Shown here piece after piece: positions 5,727 through 33,081 of a stretch of 64,000 nucleotides of DNA; positions within the stretch are counted from its first letter, which is position 1, and each line of letters begins with the position of its first letter. The position numbers and the translations under genes were made by a program. The notes beneath the pieces were generated by a model. That model made no database searches. It saw only the letters and a program-made list of their open reading frames with translations, and was not told where the DNA came from. The DNA comes from Acidiferrobacterales bacterium (GTDB lineage Bacteria; Pseudomonadota; Gammaproteobacteria; Acidiferrobacterales; SPGG2), in contig JBHIDJ010000005.1 of the NCBI GenBank assembly GCA_046760105.1, positions 4,557 through 68,556 of the forward strand. Reading direction: 5' to 3'.

Positions 5727-6869
5727 ATGAATGCAGCAGACACAAAGCACGTCTTCGTTGGACTATCCGGCGGCGTCGACTCTGCTGTGGCCGCGCTGCT
5801 GCTGCAGCGGCGGGGATATCGCGTCACCGCCTTGTTCATGAAGAATTGGGAAGAGGATGACGATAGGGATTATTGCGCCGCCGCTGAGGACTACAGGATC
5901 GCCAGCGGCGTCTGTGAGCGATTGGAGATTCCGCTCCTCGGCATCAACTTCTCCGCCGAGTACTGGGACCTTGTCTTTAGCCGCTTTCTCAGCGAGCTCG
6001 CGGCCGGACGCACGCCCAACCCGGATGTCCTATGCAACAGGGAAATCAAGTTCAGGGCCTTTTTGGACTACGCGCGGGCTAAGGGTGCAGACCTTATCGC
6101 CACTGGCCATTACGCGCGCGTCGCCCACGCCGATGGCCGTTACCAGTTGCTCAAGGGGTGCGACACCAACAAGGACCAAAGCTATTTTCTCTACACGCTC
6201 GGCCAACGCGAACTCGCGAGGATTGAATTCCCTCTTGGCGGTTTAGAGAAACTCCAGGTGCGCACGTTAGCACGTCAGGCCGGGCTGCCGAATTACGCAC
6301 GAAAAGACAGCACCGGGATCTGCTTTATCGGCGAGCGCCCGTTTAAGGCGTTCTTGCACCGCTACTTACCGCGTCGTCCGGGCGAGATCCGGGCGCTGAC
6401 GGGTGAAACCAAAGGCGAACACGATGGCGTCATGTATTACACCATCGGCCAACGCCACGGGCTGAGCATCGGTGGCCGCGGGGAACCGTGGTTTGTAGCT
6501 GACAAGGACCCAGCGCGAAACATCCTCTATGTGGTACAGGGACATAACCACCCGGCGCTTTTCAGCACGGCATTGGGGGCGGATAGCGTCCATTGGGTGG
6601 CCGGATCAGCTCCCGCGTTGCCGCTCGCCTGTCGTGCCAAGATCCGTTATCGTCAGACCGAAGCGGCCTGCCTGATCGAAAGAGGACCGGCGGACACTCT
6701 GCAACTCACCTTTTCGCATGCGCAACGCGCGGTCACGGCCGGTCAGTCAGTCGTGTTCTACCGCGGCGATGCGTGTCTAGGCGGCGGGATCATTACCCGT
6801 GCGTTCAGACATAAGGCAGCGCTGGGGGTGAGTAGCGCGCGCACAGCCGAACCGGCCGCTCAGTTTTAA
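5727..6869 (+). CDS. mnmA: tRNA 2-thiouridine(34) synthase
   Basis: 380 aa with the PP-loop GLSGGVDSAVAA, plus NPDVLCN and KDQSYFL motifs. Confidence 0.95.
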   Translation: MNAADTKHVFVGLSGGVDSAVAALLLQRRGYRVTALFMKNWEEDDDRDYCAAAEDYRIASGVCERLEIPLLGINFSAEYWDLVFSRFLSELAAGRTPNPDVLCNREIKFRAFLDYARAKGADLIATGHYARVAHADGRYQLLKGCDTNKDQSYFLYTLGQRELARIEFPLGGLEKLQVRTLARQAGLPNYARKDSTGICFIGERPFKAFLHRYLPRRPGEIRALTGETKGEHDGVMYYTIGQRHGLSIGGRGEPWFVADKDPARNILYVVQGHNHPALFSTALGADSVHWVAGSAPALPLACRAKIRYRQTEAACLIERGPADTLQLTFSHAQRAVTAGQSVVFYRGDACLGGGIITRAFRHKAALGVSSARTAEPAAQF

Positions 6870-6945: not shown

Positions 6946-8550
<1,605 letters not shown>

Positions 8551-9783: not shown

Positions 9784-10263
9784 ATGCGGCTGGGGAAACT
9801 CAACATCGGACGCTGCTTGGCGCTCGCCGTTGCGCTCTTATGGGGATGTACACACCAACCGGTTCAGGGTCCGTCAGCACCGTCTGACGCGGGCTTCTTG
9901 GCAGCACGCTATGCGATTACCATGGTGGGAACTCCTTACCGCTACGGCGGCAACACGCCCGGGGGGTTCGACTGCAGCGGGCTCGTGCACTACAGCTACG
10001 CGCGCGCCGGCTTCACTGTACCGCGCACTACCCGCCAACAGCGCAAATACTCCCGGCGGGTAGTTCGGAACGAACTCAGGCCTGGCGACCTGCTCTTCTT
10101 CAATCAAAACGGCAAACACGCATCACACGTGGGACTCTACATCGGTGATAGCCGGTTCGTGCACGCGCCGTCATCCGGGAAACATGTGTACGTCTCTATG
10201 ATCACCAGCCGTTACTGGCGCCGCCACTTCACGGAAGCCAGACGCTTCCATCTCGAGCGGTAA
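9784..10263 (+). CDS. NlpC/P60 (C40) peptidoglycan endopeptidase lipoprotein
   Basis: GTPYRYGG..GFDCSGLV..GDLLFF..HVGLYIG..FVHAP motifs. The ATG at 9784 gives the lipoprotein signal MRLGKLNIGRCLALAVALLWG-C. Confidence 0.88.
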   Translation: MRLGKLNIGRCLALAVALLWGCTHQPVQGPSAPSDAGFLAARYAITMVGTPYRYGGNTPGGFDCSGLVHYSYARAGFTVPRTTRQQRKYSRRVVRNELRPGDLLFFNQNGKHASHVGLYIGDSRFVHAPSSGKHVYVSMITSRYWRRHFTEARRFHLER

Positions 10264-10274
10264 CGTGCACTGTA

Positions 10275-10633
10275 GCCGCAAACATTCGCATCGGTCAGTC
10301 CATTCCGTACGTACAACCGTTTCTCGTCTTATCGCACAAGCACCTTGGTCTCCAGGCGAACGTCGCTTATCAGAACGTGACGACTGGTTTCGAGGTACTA
10401 CCGCACCTGTGCGGGGAGCAAGTGGAAATTGAGATCACGCCAAAGTTGTCGTTCCATACGGGACATGTGATTCAGCCAGTCAGGTTTCATGAACTGCACC
10501 ACGGTGCTCGTCGACATCGGCAGGTGACCTGAGGAGCGTGCTTGTAACCAAAAACGCGGTTACGCACGCCATCCTGATCAATGGCGCCACCTTGGCAAGT
10601 GAGGCCTACTCCATTATGTTGAAGGTGGAATAG
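10275..10633 (+). pseudogene. frameshifted, 5'-truncated remnant of a secretin-domain protein
   Basis: One frame reads NIRIGQSIPYVQ..VAYQNVTTGFEVLPHL.GEQVEIEITPKLS..FHELH. After shifts it continues TVLVDIG.. and ..EAYSIMLKVE*. This resembles the secretin C-domain pattern (i.vG...Py / v.Y.dvG..L.VtP.i.....v.L.i.P.vS / R.l.TtV.v.dG). There is no start codon, no N-terminal half, and at least two frame breaks. Confidence 0.4.
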
Positions 10634-10947: not shown

Positions 10948-13845
10948 ATGATCGGAGTACCACCCCCCACACCTGAAAACGTAGAACACCAATCCTATCT
11001 CTTTAGTGAGAACGCCTACTATATCGAAGAGCTGTATGCACGTTACCTGCAAGACGCCAACGCCGTCAGCGAGCCGTGGCGCACGTGTTTTGATGCGATT
11101 CAAGACGGTCGCCCGGACGCGCGCGCGCGCGAGGCGGCGGCAGCGGCGGCGACACGTCGACCCGAGACGAGTTGGCCCGCACCCGACAAGGCTCCTTCCA
11201 TTTCACTCAGCACCGATGCACTTAAGCAGGCGGCGGTCCTGCGTTTGATCAACGTCTACCGGGTGCGGGGACACCAACAGGCCGCTATCGACCCGCTACG
11301 GCTTCGACCACGCCCCATTGTGCCGGACCTCGATCCGGCATATCACAACCTCGGTGAAGACGACATGGCTACCGTCTTCTATACGGACGCCCGCACCGTA
11401 GGCCTGCGCTACCAGCAGAGCGGCTCACTCGCGCTGGCTGCCTCTGATCGGTTGCCCTTGAGGAAGATCATCGAGCATGCTCGGCAGATCTATTGCGGGT
11501 CCGTTGGCAGCGAATACATGTACATGACGGACAGCGAACAGAAACGTTGGATTCAGGATCGCCTCGAGCGCACCCTCGGCAAGCCCAAGTATGCACCCGA
11601 GGCCCGCCGGCGGACCCTCGAGCGCGTCACTGCCGCCGAGGGGCTGGAGAAATATCTGCATACCAAGTACGTCGGGCAGAAGCGATTTTCGCTAGAGGGC
11701 GCGGAAAGCCTGATCGCGTTGCTGGACGAACTCGTCCAACGAGCCGGCACACAAAAAGTCAAGGAGATCGTGCTTGGCATGGCCCATCGCGGACGGCTTA
11801 ATGTGCTCGTCAATATTCTAGGCAAGTCGCCGAAGGAGCTGTTCCTCGAATTTGAGGGTAAGTACGCGCTTAACGAGCAGAACGCTTCGGGCGATGTCAA
11901 GTACCATCAGGGGTTCTCGTCGGACATCGACACGCCAGGCGGACCCGTACACCTAGCGCTGGCGTTTAATCCCTCGCACCTGGAAATCGTTGACCCGATG
12001 GTCGAGGGCTCGGTGAGAGCGCGCCAGCGACGCCGCGACGACCGCGTCGGTAACGAAGTCCTGGCGGTGCTGGTTCACGGGGATGCGGCGTTCGCGGGGC
12101 AAGGTGTCGTGATGGAAACGTTCAACATGTCCCAGGCACGAGGCTTCGCCACCGGTGGGACGGTGCACATCGTCATCAATAACCAAATCGGCTTCACCAC
12201 GAGCAATCCCCTCGATTCTCGCTCAACCCTGTACTGCACAGAGGTGGCAAAGATGGTGCAGGCACCCATCTTTCACGTAAATGGCGATGATCCGGAGGCG
12301 GTCGTCTTCGTCACGCAGCTGGCACTCGACTTCCGCACCGCGTTCAAGAAGGACGTCGTCATCGACATGGTCTGCTACCGTCGCCATGGGCACAACGAAG
12401 CCGATGAGCCGGCTGCCACCCAACCCATGATGTACAAGAAGATCAAGGCCCACCCAATGGTGCGCAAGATCTACGCGGAGCGGCTCGTGCAAGAAGGCGT
12501 GGTTTCCCAAGAGCAGGCAGCGAAGATGGTGAGTGGTTACCGCGACGCGCTAGACGAGGGGCAGGTCGTCGCGCGTCAGATCTTGACGGGTATTCATAAT
12601 AAGTATCACGTCGACTGGACGCCTTACAAAGACGTGCCTTGGACCCACCCTGTCGATACCGCCGTGCCAATCGACGGGCTGCGCGAGATTGCCGAGCAAT
12701 TGAATCGGGTGTCCGAGGGTTTCGAATTGCACCCGCGCGTCGCCAGGATCTTGCACGATCGTCGTAAGATGGCTGCCGGTGGGCATCCTATCGACTGGGG
12801 TTTCGCCGAGACTCTGGCGTACGGCACCTTGATACGCGACGGCTATTCGGTCCGGCTATGCGGCCAGGACTCAGGGCGCGGTACCTTCTTTCATCGCCAC
12901 TCCGTACTCCACAACCAGAAAGATGGAGACACCGACACTCCATTGCGTCGCCTGGGAAATGGTAAAGCCAACTTTGTGGTGATCGACTCACTACTGTCCG
13001 AGGAGGCGGTCCTCGGTTTTGAATACGGCTACGCCACCGCGGAACCCAGCACGCTGGTGATCTGGGAAGCCCAATTTGGCGATTTCGTCAACGGCGCCCA
13101 GGTCGTTATCGATCAGTTCATCAGCAGCGGCGACGCCAAATGGGGACGCTGCTGCGGGTTGACTCTATTTCTACCCCATGGCTACGAGGGTCAGGGACCT
13201 GAACACTCATCGGCCAGGCTCGAGCGCTTTATGCAATTGTGCGCCGAACACAATATTCAGGTATGCATGCCGACAACACCGGCGCAGATGTTTCACATGC
13301 TGCGACGGCAGATGCTGCGCCCTTTCCGCCGACCGCTGATCGTAATGACCCCGAAGAGCCTGCTGCGCCACAAACTGTCAACATCCACGTTGGAGGATCT
13401 ATCAGGCGGCGAGTTTCAGACCGTGATCGGCGAAATCGATCCGTCGACAGCGAAAGCGGTGCAACGCGTTATCCTCTGTGGTGGCAAGGTGTACTACGAT
13501 CTCGTGGAAGAGCGGCGGTCGCGTGAGCTCGAGAAAGTTGCGATCATTCGCATTGAGCAGCTGCATCCGTTTCCACGCGAACAGCTGTCCGCCGAGCTCA
13601 AGCGCTACCGACAGGCCAAGGAGATCGTCTGGTGCCAGGAGGAATCACAGAATCAAGGAGCCTGGTATCAGATTCAGCACCACGTGCGTGCCTGCATGCT
13701 CTCTGGACAAAACCTACACTATGCAGGTCGGGCCGCTTCGGCCTCCCCGGCCGTGGGTCACTTCCCGTTGCACGTCGAGCAGCAGACGGCGCTCGTCAAT
13801 GACGCGCTGACGATCACTGCAGTTAAACTCAAGCGACAAGCATAA
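10948..13845 (+). CDS. sucA: 2-oxoglutarate dehydrogenase E1 component
   Basis: 965 aa, colinear with SucA (N-terminal YIEELY..., TPP-binding and transketolase-like regions). Followed by sucB. Confidence 0.96.
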   Translation: MIGVPPPTPENVEHQSYLFSENAYYIEELYARYLQDANAVSEPWRTCFDAIQDGRPDARAREAAAAAATRRPETSWPAPDKAPSISLSTDALKQAAVLRLINVYRVRGHQQAAIDPLRLRPRPIVPDLDPAYHNLGEDDMATVFYTDARTVGLRYQQSGSLALAASDRLPLRKIIEHARQIYCGSVGSEYMYMTDSEQKRWIQDRLERTLGKPKYAPEARRRTLERVTAAEGLEKYLHTKYVGQKRFSLEGAESLIALLDELVQRAGTQKVKEIVLGMAHRGRLNVLVNILGKSPKELFLEFEGKYALNEQNASGDVKYHQGFSSDIDTPGGPVHLALAFNPSHLEIVDPMVEGSVRARQRRRDDRVGNEVLAVLVHGDAAFAGQGVVMETFNMSQARGFATGGTVHIVINNQIGFTTSNPLDSRSTLYCTEVAKMVQAPIFHVNGDDPEAVVFVTQLALDFRTAFKKDVVIDMVCYRRHGHNEADEPAATQPMMYKKIKAHPMVRKIYAERLVQEGVVSQEQAAKMVSGYRDALDEGQVVARQILTGIHNKYHVDWTPYKDVPWTHPVDTAVPIDGLREIAEQLNRVSEGFELHPRVARILHDRRKMAAGGHPIDWGFAETLAYGTLIRDGYSVRLCGQDSGRGTFFHRHSVLHNQKDGDTDTPLRRLGNGKANFVVIDSLLSEEAVLGFEYGYATAEPSTLVIWEAQFGDFVNGAQVVIDQFISSGDAKWGRCCGLTLFLPHGYEGQGPEHSSARLERFMQLCAEHNIQVCMPTTPAQMFHMLRRQMLRPFRRPLIVMTPKSLLRHKLSTSTLEDLSGGEFQTVIGEIDPSTAKAVQRVILCGGKVYYDLVEERRSRELEKVAIIRIEQLHPFPREQLSAELKRYRQAKEIVWCQEESQNQGAWYQIQHHVRACMLSGQNLHYAGRAASASPAVGHFPLHVEQQTALVNDALTITAVKLKRQA

Positions 13846-13899
13846 ACAAGCACAACAGACAAATATAATCAGCAAGCCGAAAGGAATAACAAAGGTTAG

Positions 13900-15183
13900 A
13901 TGCGTATTGAAGTAAAATCTCCCACTCTGCCGGAATCCATCGCCGAGGCCACGCTGCTCAGTTGGCATAAGAGCACCGGTGATAGCGTGACGCGCGATGA
14001 GAACCTCGTCGATATCGAGACCGAAAAGGTCGTGCTGGAGGTACCGGCACCGCAAGACGGTATTCTGCAAGAAGTCCTGAAGCGCGACGGCGACGTGGTG
14101 GGCAGCGATGAACCCATCGCGGTCATCGAGACGGGCGCTGGTGCGGCCGCATCGACAGGCGAGCAACGCGAAGCCAAGCAGACAGCTCCCGAACCGGCAA
14201 CGCAAACCGAAGACCAAGACAAACCGGTGACCGAACCTGCAGCCGCAACAGCACAAGCTGCCTTGAGTCCGGCGGTGCGCCGCTTGCTGGCCGAGCATGA
14301 TTTGGAACCCACCGAGGTCCCTGCCACGGGCAAGGGTGGCCGCCTCACCAAGGAAGATGTGCTCACCTACCTGAAGAGCGGCGAGATGCCGAGACCCGCC
14401 CCTGAGCCGGCGAAGCTGCAAGCACCGGCCACAGAACCCGCGGCGGCACCCGAGTCGGCTGTCGCACGTCGGGACACCGATGAACGGTGCGAACGGCGAG
14501 TGCCGATGACGCGGCTACGGGCCACCATCGCCGAACGGCTGCTGCACGCGCAACAGACGGCTGCGCTGCTGACCACCTTCAACGAGGTCAATATGCAGGC
14601 GGTGATGGCGCTACGCCAAAAGTATCGTGAGCGCTTCGAGAAAGAGCACCGAGTCAGACTCGGCTTCATGTCGTTCTTCGTGAAGGCCTGCGTGCAGTCG
14701 CTCAAACAGTTTCCCGTAATTAACGCTTCGGTCGACGGCAAGGACATCATTTATCACGACTATTACGATATCGGTATCGCCGTCGCTGGATCGCGTGGAT
14801 TGGTAGTGCCAGTCTTGCGCGATACCGATCGTATAAGTTTTGCCGATATCGAAACGCGTATTACCGAGTTCGGCAAAAAGGCAGCCGACGGCAACCTGGC
14901 GATGGAAGACCTCACGGGTGGCACGTTTACGATTACCAATGGCGGCGTGTTCGGTTCGCTGGTCTCGACACCGCTCGTTAATCCTCCGCAGAGCGCCATT
15001 CTCGGGATGCACAAAATACAGCAGCGGCCGATCGCCGAGGATAACGAGGTCCGTATCCAACCTATGATGTACCTCGCACTCACCTACGACCACCGCATTA
15101 TTGACGGACGCGAAGCGGTGCAGTTCCTCGTCAGCATTAAGGACGCGTTGGAGGACCCCGCGCGTTTGTTACTCCAAATATAA
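13900..15183 (+). CDS. sucB: dihydrolipoyllysine-residue succinyltransferase (E2)
   Basis: Lipoyl domain ([15 protein letters not shown]), Ala/Pro-rich linkers, an E3-binding segment ([11 protein letters not shown]) and a catalytic domain with DHRIIDG. Confidence 0.95.
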
Positions 15184-15211
15184 CCAGGTTCCACGATTAA
15201 GCCCGTCTTTC

Positions 15212-15306
15212 AACGCAAAGGACGCAGAGATCGCGGAGCGTGTTTCTTAAGATCGCAGGGGATACACTCTTTGCGTACTCCGCGTCTCCGCGTTCTCTGC
15301 GTTTGA
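15212..15306. repeat. long imperfect inverted repeat between sucB and lpdA
   Basis: Arm aacgcaaaggacgcagagatcgcggag (15212-15238) pairs with ctccgcgtctccgcgttctctgcgtttg (15279-15306). About 23 of 27 positions pair, with one indel and a loop of about 40 nt. Confidence 0.6.
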
Positions 15307-15408
15307 CTTCGAGTTTCCAAACGAGTATTGGCTCAGAGCAGCAACGTAATAAGTCAATAAATAAGAGTCACTAAGAACCGCTGTCAAGCTCCACTAACAG
15401 GGGGGACT

Positions 15409-16839
15409 ATGGCCAAAAGCTACGATGTCGTGGTAATCGGTGCTGGACCTGCCGGGTACGTGGCGGCCATCCGTTGTGCGCAGCTTGGGCTTCGTACGGC
15501 ATGCGTCGACGAATGGATCAATAAGAAGGGTAAACCCGCACTCGGCGGTACTTGCCTGAATGTGGGATGCATTCCCTCTAAAGATCTCCTGCAGGCATCG
15601 GAAAACTACCACCGTCTACAACACCAGTTCCAGGCCTACGGGATCCGCGTGCAAAAAGCCAGCATTGACGTGCCCACCATGATTGCGCATAAAGACGGCA
15701 TCGTCCAAGGCCTTACCGATGGTGTAGCCACGTTGTTTCGGGCAAATAAGATTGCACATGTGCACGGCCATGGACGCCTGTTGAACGGCACGCGTGTAGA
15801 AATTACCGACCCTAAATCAGACAAACGCAAGGGAATCGTTGAGACGTCACATGTGATCCTCGCGAGTGGCTCCGAACCCCTCACGATCGGCGAGGCACCG
15901 ATGGATGGGAAGCGCATTGTGGATTCCGCAGGAGCACTAGAGTTCTTAGAGGTGCCCAAGCGGCTCGGCATCATCGGTGCAGGTGTAATCGGGCTTGAGG
16001 TCGGCAGTGTGTGGCGTCGTCTCGGGGCGGAGGTGGTGCTACTCGAGGCGCTCGATACCTTCTTGCCCGCAGTCGACCAACAGCTGGCTAAAGAAGCACT
16101 GAGACAATTCACCCGCCAGGGCCTCGACATTCGCCTTGGTGCACGTGTCGTCTCCAGCCGTGCCATCCAAAAGCAGGTTACGGTGCACTACCAAAACCGA
16201 GAGGGGGAACATGATCTACGGGTAGATCGGCTGGTCGTGGCAGTCGGCCGCCGCCCGAAAACCGAAGACCTGTTCAGCCCCGAATCTGGTCTGGCGTTGG
16301 ATGAGAGAGGATTCATCGACATCAACGAACAATGCCGCACGAACTTGCCCAATGTGTATGCCATCGGTGACGTGGTGCGTGGCCCCATGCTTGCGCACAA
16401 GGGCTCAGAAGAAGGTATCGCAGTGGCGGAGATGATCGCAGGCGGCAACACGCATGTGAACTATGACACGATTCCTTGGGTGATTTACACCTCGCCGGAG
16501 ATCGCGTGGGTGGGACAGACCGAACAGACGCTAAAAGAAGCCGGCGAGCCCTACAGAGCGGGCGTGTTCCCGTTCGCTGCCAATGGGCGTGCGCGGGCAC
16601 TGGAGGAACCCGTCGGTATGGTCAAGCTTATCGCCCATGAACAGACCGACCGCATATTGGGGGTACACGTCATCGGTCCGTTGGCGTCGGAGCTGATTGC
16701 GGAAGCGGTTCTGGCCATGGAATATTCCGCCAGCGCGGAGGACCTTGCGCGCACCGTACATGCCCATCCAACGTTGTCGGAGGCAGTACACGAAGCGGCC
16801 CTGGCAGTTGACAAAAGGGCGCTGCACAGGGCGCACTAA
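15409..16839 (+). CDS. lpdA: dihydrolipoyl dehydrogenase (E3)
   Basis: 476 aa with FAD-binding GAGPAGY, the redox-active GGTCLNVGCIPSK and the C-terminal HAHPTLSE motif. Confidence 0.95.
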   Translation: MAKSYDVVVIGAGPAGYVAAIRCAQLGLRTACVDEWINKKGKPALGGTCLNVGCIPSKDLLQASENYHRLQHQFQAYGIRVQKASIDVPTMIAHKDGIVQGLTDGVATLFRANKIAHVHGHGRLLNGTRVEITDPKSDKRKGIVETSHVILASGSEPLTIGEAPMDGKRIVDSAGALEFLEVPKRLGIIGAGVIGLEVGSVWRRLGAEVVLLEALDTFLPAVDQQLAKEALRQFTRQGLDIRLGARVVSSRAIQKQVTVHYQNREGEHDLRVDRLVVAVGRRPKTEDLFSPESGLALDERGFIDINEQCRTNLPNVYAIGDVVRGPMLAHKGSEEGIAVAEMIAGGNTHVNYDTIPWVIYTSPEIAWVGQTEQTLKEAGEPYRAGVFPFAANGRARALEEPVGMVKLIAHEQTDRILGVHVIGPLASELIAEAVLAMEYSASAEDLARTVHAHPTLSEAVHEAALAVDKRALHRAH

Positions 16840-21016: not shown

Positions 21017-22993
21017 ATGACCTCTGACGGCAGTATTAGTAAACCCCTGGGTAGACGGCTTGGCGACTACCAACAGTGGCGCGAGCAGTTGATCGCCAGG
21101 ATCGAGAACTACCAGTCGTGGATCGAGCAACAGGGTCTCGCCGATGGCGAGTCGGATCTGCGCGTCTATGAGCTCATCGACAGCCTTAAATCCGACAAGC
21201 TCACGATTGCAATAGTAGGCGAGTTTTCACGCGGCAAAACCGAACTCATCAATGCGATCTTCTTTGCCGACCACAAACAGCGCTTGCTACCTACAGAGGC
21301 CGGCCGCACCACCATGTGTCCGACGGAGCTGCGCTTCGATGAAGACACACCACCGTCCATCAAGCTGCTGCCGATTGGCACGCGGCACGGCTCTGAGACG
21401 ATCGCCGAACTAAGGCGTTCTTCCGCTTATTGGACCACACTACCGCTCGAGCTCGACTCGCCAACGAAGATAGCTAAGGCGTTTCACGAGATCGTACAAT
21501 CGAGGTCCGTCAGTACAGATGAGGCCCAGTCTTTAGGCCTTTATGACCCCGATACGGCCGCTGGCAGCGAGCAAGTAAGAATCCCCGTGTGGCGTCACGC
21601 GATTATCAATTATCCGCACCCACTGCTAAAGCAGGGGCTCGTGCTGCTCGACACTCCCGGATTGAATGCCCTTGGTAGTGAACCCGAACTGACGATGAGC
21701 ATGCTACCAAATGCACACGTGGTGGTTTTTGTGCTCGCTGCCGACACGGGGGTGACGAGGTCGGATCTGCAAGTGTGGCAAAACCATGTATGTGTGGCGA
21801 AGGGAGATAAGAATGAGGGGCGCATCGTGGTGCTCAATAAAATCGACACGTTGTGGGACGAGTTGCGCGGCCCCGCCGCTGTGTCGGCGAGTATATCGCG
21901 TCAGGCGCAGGAGACCGCAGCCGCGCTGGCCATGAGGAAAAGCCAGGTGCTCCCGGTGTCCGCACAGAAAGGATTGGTCGGCAAAGTCAAGGAGGACAAC
22001 GAACTTGTCGAGAAAAGCGGGTTACCGGTGCTCGAGACCAAGTTGTCAGAGGACATCGTCCCCGCTAAACAAGCGCTCATCCGTGAAAAGGTCGTACAAG
22101 AAATTGGCAGTATAGTCGAAACCACCGCGGCGACGGTCGATGCAAGGCTGTCCGCGACGAACGCAGAACTCAAGGAGCTCAAAGGAATGAGTGGAAAGAA
22201 TCGAGACGTTATTCAAAACATGATGGCGAAGAGACAACAGGATAAAGAAGCCTACAACAAAAAGCTGGCAAATCTTGAAAACACCCACCGCCAGCTCGGT
22301 GAGCAAGCTAAAATCCTGTTGACGTACCTGAGCATCGAAGCGTTCGATGCTCTAATCGACAAAACACGCAAGGAAATGAAGGACAGCTGGACCACGCATG
22401 GACTTAAGCGCGGGATGAAGACGTTCTTCGACGGCGCCATGCAAACAATGCGAAAGGTCCGCAAACAAACCGAACATATCAAGGGAATGGTCGAGGGGAT
22501 CTATCAGCAGTTCCAGATCGAGCATGGGCTCGCCAAAATCAAGCTCGAGAGCTTCGCATTGGAGCCTTACTACCGGGAGCTTACACGCTTATACAAAGAG
22601 GCCGAGGTATTCCGCAATAGCCCGACTATGGTCATGACCGAACAGCATTTTGTGGTCAAGCGGTTTTTTATCACGTTGGTGAGCCGTGCACGTCAACTGT
22701 TCGACGAAACCAACAAAGGTAGCGAGGCATGGAGTCGTGCCATAATGGCGCCCGTGTTTGCCCGCATCCGCGAGCACGAGCTGACAATGGATCAACGCGT
22801 CGAAAATCTGAAGAAAATTAACCGGAACCTGGAAACACTCAACGGGCGCATTGCTGAGCTGGAAGCCCTCAAGCAAACGCTGGAAAGTCAACAACAAGTC
22901 AACCAGGATATCCTGAAGGGCATCAACCAGCCGTTACCAGCAAACAAAGAAATTGAGCCCGGGTGTGCGGCCACCGCCCACGGCGCGCTGTAG
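21017..22993 (+). CDS. bacterial dynamin-like GTPase
   Basis: 658 aa. G1 is IAIVGEFSRGKTELINAIF, G3 is LLDTPGLNA and G4 is VLNKID. A long helical/coiled-coil C-terminal region follows. Confidence 0.85.
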   Translation: MTSDGSISKPLGRRLGDYQQWREQLIARIENYQSWIEQQGLADGESDLRVYELIDSLKSDKLTIAIVGEFSRGKTELINAIFFADHKQRLLPTEAGRTTMCPTELRFDEDTPPSIKLLPIGTRHGSETIAELRRSSAYWTTLPLELDSPTKIAKAFHEIVQSRSVSTDEAQSLGLYDPDTAAGSEQVRIPVWRHAIINYPHPLLKQGLVLLDTPGLNALGSEPELTMSMLPNAHVVVFVLAADTGVTRSDLQVWQNHVCVAKGDKNEGRIVVLNKIDTLWDELRGPAAVSASISRQAQETAAALAMRKSQVLPVSAQKGLVGKVKEDNELVEKSGLPVLETKLSEDIVPAKQALIREKVVQEIGSIVETTAATVDARLSATNAELKELKGMSGKNRDVIQNMMAKRQQDKEAYNKKLANLENTHRQLGEQAKILLTYLSIEAFDALIDKTRKEMKDSWTTHGLKRGMKTFFDGAMQTMRKVRKQTEHIKGMVEGIYQQFQIEHGLAKIKLESFALEPYYRELTRLYKEAEVFRNSPTMVMTEQHFVVKRFFITLVSRARQLFDETNKGSEAWSRAIMAPVFARIREHELTMDQRVENLKKINRNLETLNGRIAELEALKQTLESQQQVNQDILKGINQPLPANKEIEPGCAATAHGAL

Positions 22994-23844: not shown

Positions 23845-23876
23845 CGGCGGGGATTGTGATATCACAATCCCCGCCG
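23845..23876. terminator. bidirectional terminator (32-nt perfect palindrome)
   Basis: cggcggggattgtgat|atcacaatccccgccg is a perfect inverted repeat between convergent transcription units, with T-rich flanks on both strands (ttcgtttg and, on the minus strand, attagcttatttg). Confidence 0.7.
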
Positions 23877-23966: not shown

Positions 23967-25112
23967 CTATCCGCGAGGCGCACGCTCGACCACCGCGGCC
24001 ATGGCGTCTTCTTGTGCTTCCATGCTTCGCACGAGCTGAAACTGGTTGCGGCAGCGGTCAAGATTGTGATCTGCGTGTGCGGTCTTGAAATAGATGTCTC
24101 CTTCAAGGTAATCGGTCAAGAAGCGTATTCCCGTCTCGAATGTTATGAGCTTTCCCGCAAACGGCAAGAGATCGAGCTCGCGTTCGTTGAGCACGATCGC
24201 CTGCAGATAACCCTTCACCAGTGCCTCGAATATCGGCAGCCGCATGTAGACCCGACTGAGGTCACGCGCGTCTTCGCTCGCCGGGCTCGTACTCGTGCGC
24301 ACTAGATCACCGAAGTCATAGAGCACGAGCCCTGGCATGACGGTATCCAAATCGATGATGCAGAGCGCCTCGTCGCTCACTGCATCGAACAGCACGTTGT
24401 TGATCTTTGTGTCATTGTGGGTCACACGCTCAGGAAGTTCACCGCGCGCGTGAAACCCGGAAATGGTGTTAACGATTGACTCACGCTCCCGCGCGAAGTC
24501 AATCTCTTGGTGAGCGCGCGCCGCGCGCCCACACACATCTGCTTTTATCGCCTGATCCAGGTTCTGATAGCGTTTTGGCGTGTGGTGAAAGTTTGGAACC
24601 GTATCGTGCAGCCGTGGCCCGGTTAGGTCCGTCAGTAACTGTCCAAACTGCCCGAATGCCGCGGCCGCACGGTACGCCAACGCCGGCGGGCCGACAACGT
24701 TATGGATGCGTGTGCCCTCAATATACAGGTAGGTTCGCCAACAGCGGCCCGCCTGATCGAGATAATACGGCTTGCCGTCGCACCCTGGGATAAGCGTGAG
24801 CACACGACGGTCGATATCTGGCGTGCTTTCGCGCTCAAGTCTGGTATGCATGTGTCGAAGCACGCGCGCGATGTTATCCATCACGTGCTCCGGGTTAGGA
24901 AATACGTGCTGGTTGATACACTGGTGGATATAACGGATGGTGTGACCACCCTCCGTGTACGTGGCAAGGTAAGTGTCATGAATGTGGCCGCTTCTCAGTG
25001 CTACCGCATCCACGAGCCGGTCGCGTATGCTAAAGCGGTCCGCGATGCTCGAGACCGTTTCCCTTGCAGAAGAAGGCTGCTGTGAACGAGGCTTGGGTGG
25101 CCATCTTGACAA
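23967..25112 (-). CDS. phosphotransferase-family (APH / NahK-like) kinase
   Basis: 381 aa with VTHNDTKINNVLFD (catalytic loop HxDxxxxN) and IDLDTVMPGLVLYDFGD (DxD/DFG-like), typical of the aminoglycoside-phosphotransferase / sugar-1-kinase fold. Sits 54 nt downstream of icd on the same strand. Confidence 0.75.
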   Translation of the reverse strand: MSRWPPKPRSQQPSSARETVSSIADRFSIRDRLVDAVALRSGHIHDTYLATYTEGGHTIRYIHQCINQHVFPNPEHVMDNIARVLRHMHTRLERESTPDIDRRVLTLIPGCDGKPYYLDQAGRCWRTYLYIEGTRIHNVVGPPALAYRAAAAFGQFGQLLTDLTGPRLHDTVPNFHHTPKRYQNLDQAIKADVCGRAARAHQEIDFARERESIVNTISGFHARGELPERVTHNDTKINNVLFDAVSDEALCIIDLDTVMPGLVLYDFGDLVRTSTSPASEDARDLSRVYMRLPIFEALVKGYLQAIVLNERELDLLPFAGKLITFETGIRFLTDYLEGDIYFKTAHADHNLDRCRNQFQLVRSMEAQEDAMAAVVERAPRG

Positions 25113-25166: not shown

Positions 25167-26933
25167 TTAGTCCTCGGCGTCCCAACCAAATTCCTCGACG
25201 ATGCGAAACAGATCAGTCTCGGAGACGATGCCGACCGGGGTGTTCTTGGCTTCGACGATAACGCGGCGGATCCTATTGTCCGCCATTGTCTTAGAAACCA
25301 TTCGCAGCGTAAGGTTGGCCGAAACAGTGACCAACGGTTTGCTGGCGATTTCCCCTACCTTGATGTTGGCTGCCGACCTGTTAGCGCTAACAATCTTCAC
25401 GACGATGTCGCGCTGCGTCATTATGCCCCATCCCCCATCACCATTCGGCTCTACCAGAATCGAGCTGATACCGTTCTCACGCATGCAGTGCATCGCATCT
25501 TCGACTGTCGCGTCGGCGGATATGCTCTTTATGGGAGACATCACGCCAGCAGCCGTCAGCGGCTGGCGACCAGAAGCCTTCATGGCTTCTACTGGGTTAG
25601 CCACGCGTTGCGCCTCGCGCTCCTTGCGCTCCCGATTCAAGGCCTCGCGACGCTCCCGCTCAAAACGTGCAAGATCCTCGTGGCCTCCAGTGATCCTTGC
25701 GATCAAGGCATCCGCGAATGTGCTGGTCGAGATCGTATGGGCACCTTTCATTAGCCGGGCAAAGTCGTAGGTGACAAACTTCTCGCCAATTACCTTTGGG
25801 TAGGCGGCATTAACTAGATCAGCTGCTTCTTTCCAACCCATGTACTCGAGCATCATGACGCCGGACAAGAGCAGTGAGCTCGGGTTTACTTTGTTCTGGT
25901 CGGCATACTTGGGGGCGGTACCGTGTGTCGCCTCGAAGACAGCTACCGCGTCACCGATATTCGCCCCGGGCGCAATACCAATGCCACCTACCTCAGCTGC
26001 AACCGCATCGGACAGATAGTCCCCGTTCAAGTTCATGGTTGCAATGACATCGAACTCACGCGGTCGTAACTGTAGTAGCTGAAAAATGACGTCGGCGATC
26101 CGGTCCTTGATAAGGATTTTCCCGGCAGGCTGCTTACCGCCAAACTGATTGTAGAGCTCCTCTTCCGTCACGGTATAGTCATTGAACTCCTCCTTGGCCA
26201 GTTCGTAGCCCCAGTTGCGAAACGCACCTTCGGTGTATTTCATAATATTGCCTTTGTGCACCAGGGTAACGCTCTCGCGACCATGGTCGACTGCATACTG
26301 GATCGCTTTGCGAACGAGACGCTTGCTCCCGAACGGGCTAATCGGCTTCACGCCAAGGCCGGCATGGTCAAAAAACTTTGCACCCATCTCCTCGCGTAAG
26401 AAACGTGCAAGCTTCTCGTTCTCAGGCGTGCCACTTGGATACTCGATGCCGGCATATACGTCTTCCGTGTTTTCGCGGAAGATCACTACATCCACTTCTT
26501 CGGGATGTCGCAGCGGCGAGGGAACGCCGTGGTAGTAGCGCACTGGCCGCACACAGGCGTACAGATCCAGTGCTTGCCGCAACGATACGTTGAGGGACCG
26601 GAAACCACCACCGATAGGCGTCGTTAAGGGGCCTTTGATCGCAATAACCAGTTCCGTAATCGCGTCCAGTGTTTCCTTCGGAAAGTAGTCACCGTCATAA
26701 AGCGCGGCTGCCTTCTCCCCCATATAGAGCTCGCACCAGTGGACCTTGCGCTTGCCATGGTAGGCTTTGTCCACTGCAGCGTCCCATACACGCAGGCTCG
26801 CCCTCGTGATGTCCGGGCCGATACCGTCGCCCTCTACAAAGCCCACAATGGGATTATCCGGTACACGTAGCTTGCCTTTGCTTGCCGAGATTTTCTCGCC
26901 ATTTGTGGGGAGGGTGACGTGTTTGTATTTCAT
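25167..26933 (-). CDS. icd: NADP-dependent isocitrate dehydrogenase fused to a C-terminal CBS-domain pair
   Basis: Residues 1 to ~415 are colinear with E. coli Icd ([31 protein letters not shown]). A charged linker follows ([19 protein letters not shown]), then ~135 aa with two CBS-like repeats (..[23 protein letters not shown].. and ..[29 protein letters not shown]). Confidence 0.9.
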
Positions 26934-27032: not shown

Positions 27033-29198
27033 TCAATCTAAGATCGCTGACAACGGTGGGCGGCTACGGTGCGGTGGCGGAATCAAGGTGGCACCACTGC
27101 GTTGATCCAGCAAAACCTTGAGCGGCGAATCCAGTACCGGCCATTGGCCTTTCAACACATTGCGTGGGGCGTTACCCTCGAACACGAGGTAGCTGTACTT
27201 ACCGTAGTGTGGGAGCTTTCGCGCCAATCCCGCAAAAGCCATCGGATCGTCGCAGGCGAGCCACGCTAACGTGTGGGCGTCGTTTTTCGGATGCCTGGCT
27301 GCAACGACGACGGCTTCCCGAGGGCGTTCGACATCCCATTCGCCGATGCGAGCACCGTTGTACCGAAAGGACAGTTGTTGAGCAGCCAATGCGGCCACGA
27401 ATTGGGAACGGAACCGGTTTGCCCAGCCGAACAACCAGATGGACCTATCCGAAGGTAAACTCTCGAGTGCATTATCCCAGCGCCACTGAATCCCAGCGCC
27501 AGCGCGCGCCCAGCGCTGCGCGAGATCGCGGTACTGGGTTCGAGTAGCACTGGGCTCGTCAGCGGCCACGATGATCAGCATCCGTTCGCTAGCAAAGAGT
27601 TGTCCTAATGATGGAGGCATTTCGTTGCGCTCGAGCCGCCGGAAGACGTCGAACGCAGGATCGACCTCCAGCAACCAGGGACGTGCCGGCACAGCAAAAC
27701 TAAGCTCCGCTCGCCGCTCGCTCATCACGATTGTCGTCTCGAAAGGCTGGTCATGCGCCTTCAAGTGAATCACTACCGGGATGCGAAGCACATACGTGGG
27801 ACCTGTCTGGACCTGTTCCAAAACGCCAACAACGCGGTAGTCGCCACCGTACCGACGCACGCGAAGCTTGTCTATGCGCAAACGCGGGGCTCCTGTGCGC
27901 TGTAGCCATTGTGTAAACTCGCTGCCAAGATCAAGTCCGCTTGCAACCTCAAGTGCGTGCTGGATCTCCGCATAGCTAACCCGGCGAAACCGGTTGGCGT
28001 CGTAGAAACGCCGAAGTCCCTCTATGAACGTGGCATCCCCAAGGTGCAGCCGCAGCATGTGAAAGAACATGAGCGTCTTGCCATAACCCACCGCCTGGCT
28101 TATATCTCCGTGCCGGCCGCGAAATTCAGTAAGCGGAAAATCCCGCGTGCTACTGACATAGTCGCTGTACTTCTGCAGGACGCTGCGACGATATTCAGCC
28201 CCTTTGCCTCGTCGCTCTTGCATAAGGTGGTCGGCCAAATAGGCAGTTAGACCTTCGCTCCAATTGCCGCCAGCGGCCGCGACGTACACGCCATTGCCCC
28301 ACCAGTTGTGAAGAATCTCATGAGGGTAGGAAGAATCAACGATGAACGGTAGACGAATCACGCGTTGACCGAGTAGGGTGAAAGACGGCATACCGTAACC
28401 CGACTCCCAGAAATTCTCGATCAGCACAAACTTTTCGTAGGGATATGGCCCCAACAGCCGACTGTATAGATCGATGTACCGGACCGTAGCGTCGAGATAC
28501 ATTGTCGCCAACGCATCATCTGGACCGTGCAGCAGTACCAAGGCTGCGTTCCGCCCGGCCTCACGCTGGTATACGCGATACCGCCCAGCGACCAGCAGAA
28601 TCTGCTCCTGGGGCCTATGCTCACGCCAGCGGATTCGTGACAAATCACTGCCGGCGTCTGTTCGCCGTTCCACCCCTTGACTCACCGCCGACCAGCCCGC
28701 CGGTAAGTCAACTTCTAGGGAAAAGGTCAATAGTGGTCCACCGAAATCGGGGTACCAATAGCTCGATGCCGCGAGATAGACGCCGTCGGTGGAGATCAGC
28801 CCGGGTGTCGTACGGCCAGCCTTACCGTAACGTGGGTCTGACTCAACTAATGAGTGCGCAATCGTGCCACGGTACCGCAATGTGAAATGCCTCTGCGCCG
28901 ATGTCAGACGTAGCCGGAAGCGCTCCACAGGTACCGTGGCGTTGGCTCCACCGTCACGCATAAGCACGATCCCTGGCTCTTCGATGGAAGGGTGCAGCCC
29001 GGCATGGAGTAAGAATGAGAACTCATGCTCGCGCGCGATCATGCTCTGCGGCAGGGTGATCGTGTCACGCGCTTGCAGCTCCCCACTCGCTGGATGAACC
29101 GAGAGCTTGAGATCGTGATGGATCACCGATCCCGCAAAGGCCGGCATGCTAAGGACAAACAGCGTGATCCGAAACAGCTTGCGAAAAATTGCGCTCAT
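27033..29198 (-). CDS. M1-family (gluzincin) metallopeptidase, secreted
   Basis: HEILHNWWGN followed by WSEGLTAYL (HEXXH-X18-E). Start trimmed to the ATG at 29198, giving the signal-like MSAIFRKLFRITLFVLSMPAFAG. It carries a ~250-aa C-terminal region of unknown function. Confidence 0.8.
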   Translation of the reverse strand: MSAIFRKLFRITLFVLSMPAFAGSVIHHDLKLSVHPASGELQARDTITLPQSMIAREHEFSFLLHAGLHPSIEEPGIVLMRDGGANATVPVERFRLRLTSAQRHFTLRYRGTIAHSLVESDPRYGKAGRTTPGLISTDGVYLAASSYWYPDFGGPLLTFSLEVDLPAGWSAVSQGVERRTDAGSDLSRIRWREHRPQEQILLVAGRYRVYQREAGRNAALVLLHGPDDALATMYLDATVRYIDLYSRLLGPYPYEKFVLIENFWESGYGMPSFTLLGQRVIRLPFIVDSSYPHEILHNWWGNGVYVAAAGGNWSEGLTAYLADHLMQERRGKGAEYRRSVLQKYSDYVSSTRDFPLTEFRGRHGDISQAVGYGKTLMFFHMLRLHLGDATFIEGLRRFYDANRFRRVSYAEIQHALEVASGLDLGSEFTQWLQRTGAPRLRIDKLRVRRYGGDYRVVGVLEQVQTGPTYVLRIPVVIHLKAHDQPFETTIVMSERRAELSFAVPARPWLLEVDPAFDVFRRLERNEMPPSLGQLFASERMLIIVAADEPSATRTQYRDLAQRWARAGAGIQWRWDNALESLPSDRSIWLFGWANRFRSQFVAALAAQQLSFRYNGARIGEWDVERPREAVVVAARHPKNDAHTLAWLACDDPMAFAGLARKLPHYGKYSYLVFEGNAPRNVLKGQWPVLDSPLKVLLDQRSGATLIPPPHRSRPPLSAILD

Positions 29199-29268
29199 CG
29201 CCTTGCTATCCTCGCTGCAACAAGCACGCGGCACCCAAAACAGCATTTCCAGGGTACAATGTCATGAA

Positions 29269-30693: not shown

Positions 30694-31428
30694 ATGAAAG
30701 CAAGACTGGTTGCCTATCTTGATTCCATATTCGAAAGCGTCCGCAATCTGACACCGATCATCCTGGTCATTGCTTTCTTTCAGATGGTGGTTTTACGGCA
30801 GCCGTTGCCAGATCTCGGTGGCCTGCTTTTTGGCACTCTCCTGGTCATTGTCGGGTTGACACTTTTTCTACGCGGGCTCGACATGGGCCTGTTTCCAATC
30901 GGGGATTCCCTTGCCCACGGTTTTGCACGTAAGGGTAGTCTGTCCTGGCTGCTTGTCTTCGCCTTCGCTCTAGGTCTCGGCACAACCGTGGCGGAACCTT
31001 CTTTGATTGCCGTCGCCAAAAAGGCGGCCGTGGCGGCAGCAGAAGATGGCGTGATTAGCAATACCGAGTCAGCGCGCGAGGTGTACGCGCTCGAGCTCAG
31101 ATTCACGGTCGGCCTTGCTGTTGGCTTTGCCATCGTCATAGGGGTAGTGCGGATTATCCGTGGCTGGCCGATTCAATATCTGCTTATTGCCGGTTATGTC
31201 GGCGTCGTCACGATGACCGCGTTTGCACCAAAGGAAATAATCGGCATTGCTTACGATGCCGGCGGTGTGACGACTTCCGCTGTCACAGTACCACTGGTGA
31301 CAGCAGTCGGCATAGGTCTCGCTTCCAGTATCAAGGGCCGCAATCCGATGGTGGACGGTTTTGGCCTTGTTGCTTTTGCCTCACTCACACCGATTATCTT
31401 CGTGATGGCTTACGGAATGCTAACCTGA
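30694..31428 (+). CDS. DUF1538 family integral membrane protein (subunit 1)
   Basis: 244 aa and polytopic. Motifs [21 protein letters not shown] and [17 protein letters not shown] recur in the next ORF. My recollection is that this matches DUF1538. Confidence 0.7.
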
Positions 31429-32297
31429 TGGAGTGGCTACATACATTTCTCGACGTAACACGCGATACCTTGCGTGACGTGCTCCCTATCGCGCTTATCA
31501 TCTTCGCCTTCCAGGTGTTCGTTCTGCGCCGGCGCATCCCTCACCTGAAAAGGGTGCTGTTAGGCTTCGCCTATGTGATTATCGGCATGACTTTATTTTT
31601 GCTTGGCCTTGAGCAAGCGCTGTTTCCGTTGGGCAAAGTCATGGCCGAACAGCTCACAGATCCTGTGTTTATCCATGGCACCATTGAGGCAGTAACTGAT
31701 GTTTTGCGCTGGCAGGATTACAACTGGGTCTACCTGTTTGCGGCTGCCATCGGATTTTCCACGACGATCGCCGAACCGGCTTTGATCGCTGTTGCCAAGA
31801 AGGCGCACCATGTATCGGGCGGCGCCATCAGTGTACGCGGGCTGCGCGTCGCGGTGGCGGTGGGCGTAGCCATTGGTATTGCGCTGGGGTGTTTTCGCAT
31901 TATCACGGGCACGCCGCTTCACTACTATATCATTGCCGGTTACATCGTGGTGATTGTGCAAACGATCTTCGCGCCTCGTCTCATAATTGCTCTCGCCTAC
32001 GACTCCGGCGGCGTCACCACGGGCATGGTGACAGTGCCGCTGGTCGCCGCCCTGGGTCTGGGGTTGGCGGGCACGGTGCCGGGGCGCAGTCCCATCATAG
32101 ACGGCTTCGGTCTGATCGCATTCGCCAGCCTGTTCCCAATCATGGCCGTCATAGGCTATGCCCAGTTAGCTGAATGGCGTGAGCGCCGGAAACGCGCGCG
32201 ACGGGCACAGGAGCTTTTCGATTGGTACGCCCAGAGCGCATCGGGGCAGACTATCTCTGAGACATCGGGCGGAAGCGAACCCAGAGATACGCAGTGA
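31428..32297 (+). CDS. DUF1538 family integral membrane protein (subunit 2)
   Basis: 289 aa paralog of the previous ORF ([41 protein letters not shown]). Its start overlaps the upstream stop (TGATG). Confidence 0.7.
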   Translation: MEWLHTFLDVTRDTLRDVLPIALIIFAFQVFVLRRRIPHLKRVLLGFAYVIIGMTLFLLGLEQALFPLGKVMAEQLTDPVFIHGTIEAVTDVLRWQDYNWVYLFAAAIGFSTTIAEPALIAVAKKAHHVSGGAISVRGLRVAVAVGVAIGIALGCFRIITGTPLHYYIIAGYIVVIVQTIFAPRLIIALAYDSGGVTTGMVTVPLVAALGLGLAGTVPGRSPIIDGFGLIAFASLFPIMAVIGYAQLAEWRERRKRARRAQELFDWYAQSASGQTISETSGGSEPRDTQ

Positions 32298-32329
32298 AAT
32301 AATCTGGCTAAAATAGAGGAAGGGCCATC

Positions 32330-32680
32330 ATGCACTTTAAACTGATCATTACCCTTGTCGAAGACGACAAGACCGATGCGGTGTTGAATGCCACCCGCAA
32401 GGCCGGCGCGACCGGCGCAACCGTCATCAACCAGGCGCGCGGCCAGGGCCTGGAAACGAGCAAGACGTTCTTCGGTCTTGAACTCGAGACGCAGCGCGAC
32501 GTGCTCATGTTCCTAGTCGAGGAGCACTTGAGTCGCAAGATTCTAGAGACCATCGCTGAGGTCGGCGAATTTGACAAGAACCCCGGCGCCGGCATTGCGT
32601 TTCAGATTGATGTTGATGATGCAGTCGGCGTGACTCAGCAGATCCGCAAACTCACTGACGCGGTGGAGGAGGAGATATGA
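32330..32680 (+). CDS. PII-like signal transduction protein
   Basis: 116 aa. MHFKLIITLVEDDKTDAVLNATRKAGATGATVI..ARGQG.. fits the beta-alpha-beta PII/GlnB-like fold pattern with a T-loop-like segment. Confidence 0.65.
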   Translation: MHFKLIITLVEDDKTDAVLNATRKAGATGATVINQARGQGLETSKTFFGLELETQRDVLMFLVEEHLSRKILETIAEVGEFDKNPGAGIAFQIDVDDAVGVTQQIRKLTDAVEEEI

Positions 32681-33081
32681 GCGAGAAAAAACTCATCCGG
32701 GTGCAGGACGTGATGAGGGCCGAGTTTTATATGGTCGACGGCATGGCTACCGTTGAGGAGGCCTTGCGCATCATGAAGCAGAACGAGACGGAGTGCCTAG
32801 TTGTCGATAAGCGCAATCAAGAGGATGAGTATGGATTGTTGCTTATCTCCGACATTGCACGAAGCGTATTAGCCCAAGACCGCGCCCCCCAACGGGTCAA
32901 TGTCTATGAAGTCATGGCCAAGCCGATAATCGCAGTTGACCCAGCGATGGACATCCGCTACTGCGCACGCCTATTCACGCGTTTCGACCTATCACGTGCT
33001 CCAGTAATCGAAAACGGTAAGGTCGTAGGCTTCGTCAGTTTCACTGACCTCGTGATGCGGGGGCTTTCTGAGCTGTACTGA
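32677..33081 (+). CDS. CBS-domain pair protein
   Basis: 134 aa with two CBS repeats (VQDVMRAEFYMVDGMATVEEAL..CLVV ; VYEVMAKPIIAVDPAMDI..RAPVIENGKVVGFVSFTDL). ATGA start/stop overlap with the PII-like gene. Confidence 0.8.
   Translation: MSEKKLIRVQDVMRAEFYMVDGMATVEEALRIMKQNETECLVVDKRNQEDEYGLLLISDIARSVLAQDRAPQRVNVYEVMAKPIIAVDPAMDIRYCARLFTRFDLSRAPVIENGKVVGFVSFTDLVMRGLSELY

Follow-up and report, generated by a model that had tools for sequence, protein, structure and literature searches.

A 64-kb stretch of DNA from an Acidiferrobacterales bacterium (the window) contains a complete gene, icd-CBS, in which one open reading frame (ORF) on the minus strand (25167..26933; ATG start, 588 codons plus stop) encodes an isocitrate dehydrogenase (IDH) core, a charged linker and a pair of cystathionine beta-synthase (CBS) domains. 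Judged from its sequences, IDH-CBS is a widespread family that goes back to a single origin. We lean toward the view that the enzyme is a housekeeping NADP-dependent IDH whose CBS pair acts in cis as a sensor for an adenosine-type ligand, our best guess being AMP or the balance of AMP/ADP versus ATP. The wider claim is that IDH-CBS represents an unrecognised class of allosteric bacterial NADP-IDH, in which the CBS pair (Bateman module) reads AMP or energy charge and gates tricarboxylic acid (TCA) cycle flux and NADPH supply, and that this single invention has become established as the housekeeping icd of hundreds of environmentally important gammaproteobacterial species. We put this forward as a possibility, rated a little below even.

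All parts of the gene were assigned on the minus strand. The NADP-isocitrate dehydrogenase catalytic core (residues 1–413, 25695..26933) was recognised by Pfam Iso_dh and TIGR00183. It is followed by the charged linker (residues 414–460, 25554..25694), supported by an AlphaFold2 model, conserved residues and the ratio of nonsynonymous to synonymous substitution rates (dN/dS). CBS repeat 1 (residues 461–520, 25374..25553; Pfam CBS) and CBS repeat 2 (residues 521–582, 25188..25373; best Pfam CBS stretch 526–580) come next. A short acidic C-terminal tail, G583-W-D-A-E-D588, closes the protein and, together with the stop codon, occupies 25167..25187. The original prediction, made from the DNA letters alone, had read the gene as an IDH that ends where E. 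coli Icd ends and then runs on, in the same frame, through a charged linker into two CBS repeats. The analysis bore this out. Pfam matched Iso_dh and two CBS stretches on the 588-aa product, the core's end-to-end alignments with IDHs of known structure (412–418 aa) stop at query residue 412–413, and a single 588-aa ORF continues through the charged stretch, found at residues 425–443 of the linker, into the CBS pair. Its product matches MFQ6021513.1 exactly; this entry comes from a metagenome-assembled genome (MAG) labelled Acidiferrobacterales bacterium.

To survey the architecture, GTDB was scanned at one genome per species, using an alignment of the tail only as the query. Relatives of the tail were encoded in about 350 species genomes; the locus counts given here rest on the best 80 loci among them. 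A single uninterrupted frame from core through linker to CBS pair was present in 73 of the 80 loci, which is every contig-complete locus, and the remaining seven end at contig edges. The contig-complete loci stem from independent assemblies, among which are closed chromosomes and genomes of isolates. Protein clusters at the 90% identity level (NCBI, JGI, ENA and Logan assemblies) gave the same picture: all of the best 120 listed contained PF00180 together with PF00571. Their lengths were 518–592 aa, mostly 585–592 aa, and their identity to the query was 69–100%. The database survey proposed with the original prediction has thus uncovered a large family.

These counts decide on the objection that the ORF is an artefact, in which the loss of a stop codon through faulty sequencing or assembly joined adjacent icd and CBS-pair genes. 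The same open frame in 73 of 73 contig-complete loci of independent assemblies, closed chromosomes and isolates among them, speaks against such an error, as do the tightly kept lengths of 585–592 aa and the purifying selection on a linker with invariant residues. The objection can draw on two database entries, a 124-aa CBS-only protein that RefSeq annotates within the Nitrococcus mobilis gene (WP_332247722.1) and one frameshifted representative, P0122. The check for a frameshift or lost stop, for which the 73 intact loci served in place of read-level data, revealed neither a stop codon nor a homopolymer run in the junction DNA. The artefact reading is effectively refuted, and we give it practically no weight.

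The CBS-only entry deserves a separate remark. WP_332247722.1 ("CBS domain-containing protein", 124 aa) clusters at 90% with the 586-aa fusion of N. mobilis Nb-231 (locus L066, about 10001–10543). Its length would place the start near the Met465 equivalent, and it looks like a second gene call lying within the 3' part of icd-CBS. An internal start at the invariant Met451 or Met465, giving a separate CBS protein, was considered and rejected: there is no Shine-Dalgarno sequence ahead of Met451 (...ccagtagaagccATG), and Met465 fits the usual consensus for the start of a CBS domain.

The selection acting on the three parts was estimated next to their divergence. Mean identity to the query fell from 81% in the core to 66% in the linker and 58% in the CBS pair. 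The codon analysis of 98 gene pairs with synonymous divergence (dS) below 0.7 yielded dN/dS values of 0.16, 0.37 and 0.36, respectively; for the closest pairs, the value of the CBS pair was 0–0.17. Core, linker and CBS pair are each under purifying selection.

The origin of the fusion was traced by an exhaustive phmmer search of 1.84 billion representatives at the 50% identity level. Exactly one full-length fusion representative was obtained (P0121, 589 aa, 904 bits, residues 1–584), along with one C-terminal fragment (P0182). The rest of the best 150 matches lacked the CBS tail and aligned to residues 1 to ~415 only; these were plain IDHs (~400–475 aa), fragments, or IDHs with unrelated extensions. 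In a distance tree from which P0122 was left out, the fused cores were monophyletic in 40 of 40 bootstraps. Monophyly was not recovered while P0122 was included; this is a frameshifted sequence of the fusion clade, whose last 89 residues are out-of-frame. Core identity was at least 70% within the fusion family and at most 63% to any unfused IDH. Since the fused cores form one clade, a single origin is indicated. A stand-alone CBS-pair gene within the window (32677–33081, plus strand, 134 aa) was considered as a recent donor of the fused module and rejected, its product being only 27% identical to the tail.

The hosts are labelled Acidiferrobacterales/-aceae, Arenicellales, Candidatus Competibacteraceae, Ectothiorhodospiraceae, Aquisalimonadaceae and unclassified Gammaproteobacteria. 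Among the isolates, the fusion is carried by Nitrococcus mobilis Nb-231, Aquisalimonas lutea CECT 8326, Plasticicumulans acidivorans DSM 23606 and Arhodomonas sp. AD133, and two closed MAG chromosomes (OZ244194 and OZ244895) carry it as well. It also occurs in MAGs labelled Nitrospira, Nitrospiraceae, Thermodesulfobacteriota and Phycisphaerales (loci L002, L004, L037, L062 and L063). The Nitrospira-labelled locus L002 has the local gene order of the window (APH kinase, dynamin-like GTPase, FAD-binding protein, DUF1538), so mis-binned contigs, rather than horizontal transfer, are the simplest explanation for these labels. The isolate proteins (WP_005002574.1/A4BU15 of N. mobilis, WP_110018279.1 of P. 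acidivorans, and WP_290200735.1) and the other members have been named only "isocitrate dehydrogenase (NADP(+))" or "NADP-dependent isocitrate dehydrogenase". The fusion has been public since the N. mobilis Nb-231 genome under a plain IDH name, and the generic name used throughout the databases hides the CBS feature.

The core was compared with characterised IDHs. Pfam Iso_dh covered residues 30–409 (E = 5e-86), and the NCBIfam equivalog TIGR00183 (prok_nadp_idh) scored 645.9 bits, above its cutoff of 567.3, and matched residues 3–413 to positions 2–415 of the 417 in the model. The score for TIGR00175 (mito_nad_idh) was 188.8 bits, below its cutoff of 432.4, which places the core outside the IDH3-type NAD-IDHs. 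The sequence matches in the PDB were P. aeruginosa ICD (5M2E, E = 3.7e-164), A. fulgidus IDH (2IV0) and E. coli IDH (1AI2, E = 2e-161), and the identity to the P. aeruginosa, E. coli and B. subtilis structures was 55–60% over the full core length. We take the substrate, metal and catalytic residues of E. coli IDH to be S113, N115, R119, R129, R153, Y160, K230, D283, D307 and D311. Their query equivalents (S113, N115, R119, R129, R153, Y160, K232, D281, D305 and D309) are invariant in 57 diverse fusion sequences and line up with those of the solved IDHs. The determinants of NADP specificity are presumably K344, Y345, V351, Y391 and R395 in E. coli numbering; the same 57 sequences show no variation at K342, Y343, Y389 and R393, and V349 reaches at least 90% conservation. 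In terms of sequence, the fusion core has all hallmarks of an active NADP-IDH. Ser113, the residue phosphorylated by AceK in the E. coli paradigm, is also invariant in the fusion family. Its conservation is uninformative on AceK control, because essentially all IDHs keep S113 for substrate binding.

The full-length protein was modelled with AlphaFold2 from a 57-sequence alignment (mean predicted local distance difference test score, pLDDT, 82.3; predicted template modelling score, pTM, 0.73). The linker was predicted as a long helix of 28 residues (418–445) followed by a short helix (447–453), with pLDDT values of 70–83, and a conserved SGRQP lead-in connects these helices to CBS1. Residues R428, E440, R443, P447, M451 and G455 are kept in 167–170 of 170 sequences. 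This pattern of conservation indicates that the linker is more than a featureless spacer. Comparison of the full-length model with the PDB retrieved IDH cores only (at most 427 aligned columns, TM-score 0.61–0.67 normalised to the query). No PDB structure holding both the IDH and the CBS parts was found by the sequence or the fold search.

For the CBS pair, two Pfam CBS stretches were detected (E = 1.7e-20; 73.5 bits versus a gathering cutoff of 24). The model was confident in this region, with pLDDT values of 83–93 over residues 461–580 and 80.5 for a model of the tail only; confidence was low at the C-terminal tail (pLDDT 55). The motif G-h-h-S/T-x-x-D/N binds ribose-phosphate and is the hallmark of nucleotide-binding CBS sites. 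The original prediction had expected adenosyl-ligand binding from the CBS assignment, and canonical motifs were indeed seen in both repeats of the window protein, GIMTQRD (503–509) and GIVSETD (568–574). The CBS1 motif W502-G-I-M-T-Q-R-D509 (25407–25430, minus strand) is of the ribose-phosphate type: W502, G503, I504, T506 and D509 were found in 170 of 170 sequences and R508 in 168. Around the CBS2 motif G568-I-V-S-E-T-D574 (25212–25232, minus strand), G568 and R557 were present in all 170 sequences, R556, its partner in an Arg pair of repeat 2, in 168, and S/T571 in 165. D574 was kept in only 149, being otherwise G, A, H or N, partly in Competibacter-type sequences. The conserved EEFGW motif starts at residue 580 (F582, 164/170; G583, 167/170; W584, 152/170). 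On the model, the tail folds as a CBS pair, in keeping with two packed copies of the beta-alpha-beta-beta-alpha fold, and its ligand motifs are intact. The universally kept CBS1 site is the pattern to be expected, from sequence, of a functional ligand pocket.

This conservation bears on a further reading, in which the CBS pair serves chiefly for structure or oligomerisation, mediating a dimer of dimers, a higher assembly or stability, with no small-molecule regulation. CBS pairs often dimerise and promote assembly, the CBS-CP12 hexamer being an example, and both the absence of the CBS2 Asp in some lineages and the faster evolution of the tail would suit such a role. The five residues of CBS1 that are identical in all sequences are, however, what one would expect of a ligand pocket and not of an interface, and the unfused homologues are stable dimers without any such module. 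We consider a purely structural role quite unlikely.

The relatives of the tail point to a class of ligand. Its best match among solved sequences was CBS-CP12 of Microcystis aeruginosa (E = 1.9e-14). A Foldseek search of the tail against the PDB gave 431 matches at E ≤ 0.001; all of the 50 listed were CBS-domain proteins, with CBS-CP12 again the best among them (E ~1e-12, 32–34% identity, root mean square deviation of 2.1–2.8 Å over 120–133 columns). The other neighbours listed were uncharacterised stand-alone CBS proteins, Rv2626c, AcuB (AMP, ADP, ATP or diadenosine tetraphosphate, Ap4A), IMP dehydrogenase (IMPDH) and MgtE; the NCBIfam IMPDH model also matched the tail (2e-09). CBS-CP12 has AMP as its specific ligand and fails to bind ADP, ATP or cAMP; its isolated CBS pair takes one AMP, and the protein is an AMP-dependent phosphoribulokinase inhibitor (PMC6142219).

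The same neighbours leave room for another signal, such as S-adenosylmethionine (SAM), NAD(P)H, Ap4A or the guanosine tetra- and pentaphosphates ((p)ppGpp), Mg2+, or ionic strength. They bind varied ligands, namely AMP, ADP, ATP and Ap4A in AcuB, ATP and ppGpp in IMPDH, and Mg2+ in MgtE/CorC. In addition, several hosts are marine or halophilic, with Aquisalimonas, Arhodomonas and Nitrococcus as cultured halophiles, and the short acidic C-terminal tail is conserved. Against such a signal, the fusion is also present in non-halophilic Competibacteraceae of activated sludge. The top match in both sequence and structure is the AMP-specific CBS-CP12, and the T/S and D motif residues, taken with the invariant Arg residues, best fit a phosphorylated nucleoside. 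Overall, a signal of this other kind seems unlikely to us, though it keeps a real chance.

In the mechanism that we favour, a homodimer-type icd would have gained a C-terminal Bateman module on a helical linker of ~45 residues in one ancestral event. The CBS pair would take up a ligand with an adenosine moiety in the pocket formed around the invariant CBS1 motif; this ligand may be AMP, or the AMP/ADP-versus-ATP balance may be read. Binding would shift the IDH between more and less active states in cis, as an allosteric effect; possible coupling routes include docking of the module onto the mobile large domain and CBS–CBS pairing across the dimer. The flux from isocitrate to 2-oxoglutarate and the NADPH yield would then be tied to the energy state without a separate kinase. 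The proposed ligand binding, ligand identity, direction of the effect and coupling geometry are drawn from analogy with cystathionine beta-synthase and with IMPDH and CBS-pyrophosphatase, where nucleotides alter how the CBS pairs associate, and from the kinship with CBS-CP12. Direct control by nucleotides or energy charge, which the original prediction had put in the place of the AceK switch of E. coli, is plausible in view of the motif conservation and the identity of 32–34% to CBS-CP12. Low energy charge switches IDH on through AMP acting via AceK in E. coli, and through ADP or AMP acting on mitochondrial IDH3. Because this holds for both known adenylate-controlled systems, we would guess that AMP or ADP activates the fusion enzyme.

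Several points weigh against a cis-acting adenylate sensor. CBS pairs elsewhere bind SAM, Ap4A, (p)ppGpp, cyclic di-AMP or Mg2+, sense ionic strength, or only oligomerise, and the level of identity to CBS-CP12 is too low for a transfer of ligand specificity. The tail evolves approximately twice as fast as the core. The ribose-binding Asp574 of CBS2 is lost in 21 of 170 sequences, and therefore at most one site is universal. The 15 fusion-specific core positions are scattered, a few of them lying in the clasp region (167–191), and no clear docking patch emerges among them.

The gene neighbourhood was inspected for partners, as the CBS pair might instead dock a partner protein and regulate it, or be regulated, in trans, like CBS-CP12 on phosphoribulokinase or plant CBSX on thioredoxin. 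The closest relative of the tail, CBS-CP12, acts on a separate enzyme, and a phosphoenolpyruvate (PEP) carboxylase gene lies directly downstream in 9–12 loci of the Nitrococcus/Ectothiorhodospiraceae group. Neighbour clustering yielded no conserved operon partner, however, with no neighbour family in more than 17 of 70 loci; the recurrent neighbours (Ppc, an OxyR-like LysR regulator, GGT, an MFS transporter and GATase) are lineage-specific. The APH-family kinase adjoining the gene in the window recurs in just four of the 80 loci, and the covalent attachment to the IDH itself favours action in cis. We regard partner docking as very unlikely. As there is no universal partner gene, regulation in cis is favoured.

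In the window, icd-CBS is flanked on the same strand by genes for an M1-family peptidase (27033–29246) and, downstream, the APH-family kinase (23967–25112). The peptidase adjoins the fusion in one of the 80 loci, and the loci with the kinase are all close relatives. The kinase was examined as an AceK-like partner and rejected on account of this narrow occurrence. AceK itself, whose gene usually accompanies aceBA, was not present among the 12 ORFs of at least 500 aa in the window. The PEP carboxylase (~900 aa) mentioned above is encoded on the same strand as icd-CBS (L049, L072, L075 and others); this association between the IDH step and the chief anaplerotic enzyme is confined to the Nitrococcus/Ectothiorhodospiraceae/Arhodomonas group.

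The wider context suggests that icd-CBS is the ancestral housekeeping icd, feeding the energy-yielding TCA step. The sucA, sucB and lpd genes, which make up the complete 2-oxoglutarate dehydrogenase complex, are located 8–14 kb from icd-CBS (10948–16839, plus strand). The window also contains clpA (2554–4806), mnmA (5727–6869) and purB (6967–8550), which we take to be icd neighbours in Pseudomonas and E. coli.

With these results in hand, the fusion can be set beside known systems. The NADP-IDHs of E. coli, P. aeruginosa and B. subtilis (Icd; TIGR00183; 1AI2, 5M2E and 1HQS) share the catalytic and NADP residues and Ser113 with the fusion core. Unlike the fusion, E. coli-type Icd ends at about residue 416 and has no CBS pair, and the E. 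coli enzyme is phosphorylated at Ser113 by AceK in place of having an attached sensor. To our knowledge, the bacterial homodimeric NADP-IDH is described in textbooks as non-allosteric, the AceK phosphorylation of enterics being its only well-studied control. Mitochondrial NAD-IDH (IDH3; yeast IDH1/IDH2) is activated allosterically by ADP or AMP and by citrate. Its IDH step is thus under adenylate control, as proposed for the fusion, and the two have a common beta-decarboxylating dehydrogenase fold (32% identity); it differs in its paralogous regulatory subunits, its NAD-specific hetero-oligomers and the lack of a CBS module.

On the side of the CBS pair, cystathionine beta-synthase offers the closest architectural analogy for regulation in cis, with core, linker and C-terminal CBS pair in one chain. 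This enzyme has an autoinhibitory Bateman module at its C-terminus, and the inhibition is relieved by SAM. The catalytic fold of a pyridoxal phosphate enzyme and the SAM ligand set it apart, and nothing in the fusion points to autoinhibition. IMPDH and the CBS family II pyrophosphatase, whose modules are regulated by adenine/guanine nucleotides and Ap4A, resemble the proposed role of the fusion, as they are metabolic enzymes in which a nucleotide-sensing CBS pair alters activity via oligomer rearrangement; in contrast to the fusion, their module is inserted, their catalytic folds are different and their regulation is experimentally established. CBS-CP12 of M. aeruginosa (5NMU, 5NPL and 5NVD), the nearest solved relative of the tail, passes an AMP signal to an enzyme of carbon metabolism, but it is a stand-alone, hexameric regulator joined to CP12 and acts in trans on phosphoribulokinase.

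Other IDHs show that further domains can be accommodated at the C-terminus, examples being the Thermus thermophilus IDH (2D1C, 496 aa) and P0124 (776 aa). These additions are not CBS pairs and are unrelated to the IDH-CBS family. P0124 combines a full IDH core, with 60% identity to the query, and an entire malate/lactate dehydrogenase (Ldh_1_N + Ldh_1_C), so that two TCA-cycle enzymes are fused.

The original prediction had stated that no characterised IDH-CBS fusion was known. In agreement, full-text searches of the literature found no description of an IDH-CBS enzyme, and none emerged from the sequence search of solved structures or from the fold search. The two component parts, and CBS regulation as a principle, are already well known; it is their combination that is uncharacterised and moderately surprising for IDH specialists. 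If the sensor reading is true, IDH-CBS would constitute a third, mechanistically distinct control of the IDH step besides AceK and the regulatory subunits of eukaryotic IDH3, and would have converged in function with the AceK control of enterics and the ADP/AMP activation of mitochondrial IDH3. The hosts are relevant to sulfur, nitrogen and carbon cycling and to wastewater treatment. They include sulfur and nitrite oxidisers, deep-sea Arenicellales, and Competibacteraceae and Plasticicumulans, which accumulate glycogen or polyhydroxyalkanoates; in organisms that store such polymers, how acetyl-CoA and NADPH are partitioned is of central importance. Cultured isolates carry icd-CBS, which makes the question open to direct testing.

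Around icd-CBS itself, a scan found no sigma-70 promoter, and no minus-strand terminator was found between the peptidase, icd-CBS and APH kinase genes. These three genes may be co-transcribed. On the plus strand, a dynamin-family GTPase (658 aa, 21017–22993) is located near icd-CBS, as in the three closest relatives (L001–L003). A cluster at 30694–33081 (plus strand) encodes two DUF1538 membrane proteins, a P-II-like protein (32330–32680) and the stand-alone CBS-pair protein described above. Further away, on the minus strand, a protein with an adenylate/guanylate cyclase domain and TPR repeats (50445–52415) and a GAF and HD-domain protein (61510–63429) represent nucleotide second-messenger signalling, with no evident link to icd-CBS. 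Just downstream of the APH kinase gene, a perfect palindrome with a 14-bp stem (CGGCGGGGATTGTGATATCACAATCCCCGCCG) was observed at 23845–23876, and its form is terminator-like.

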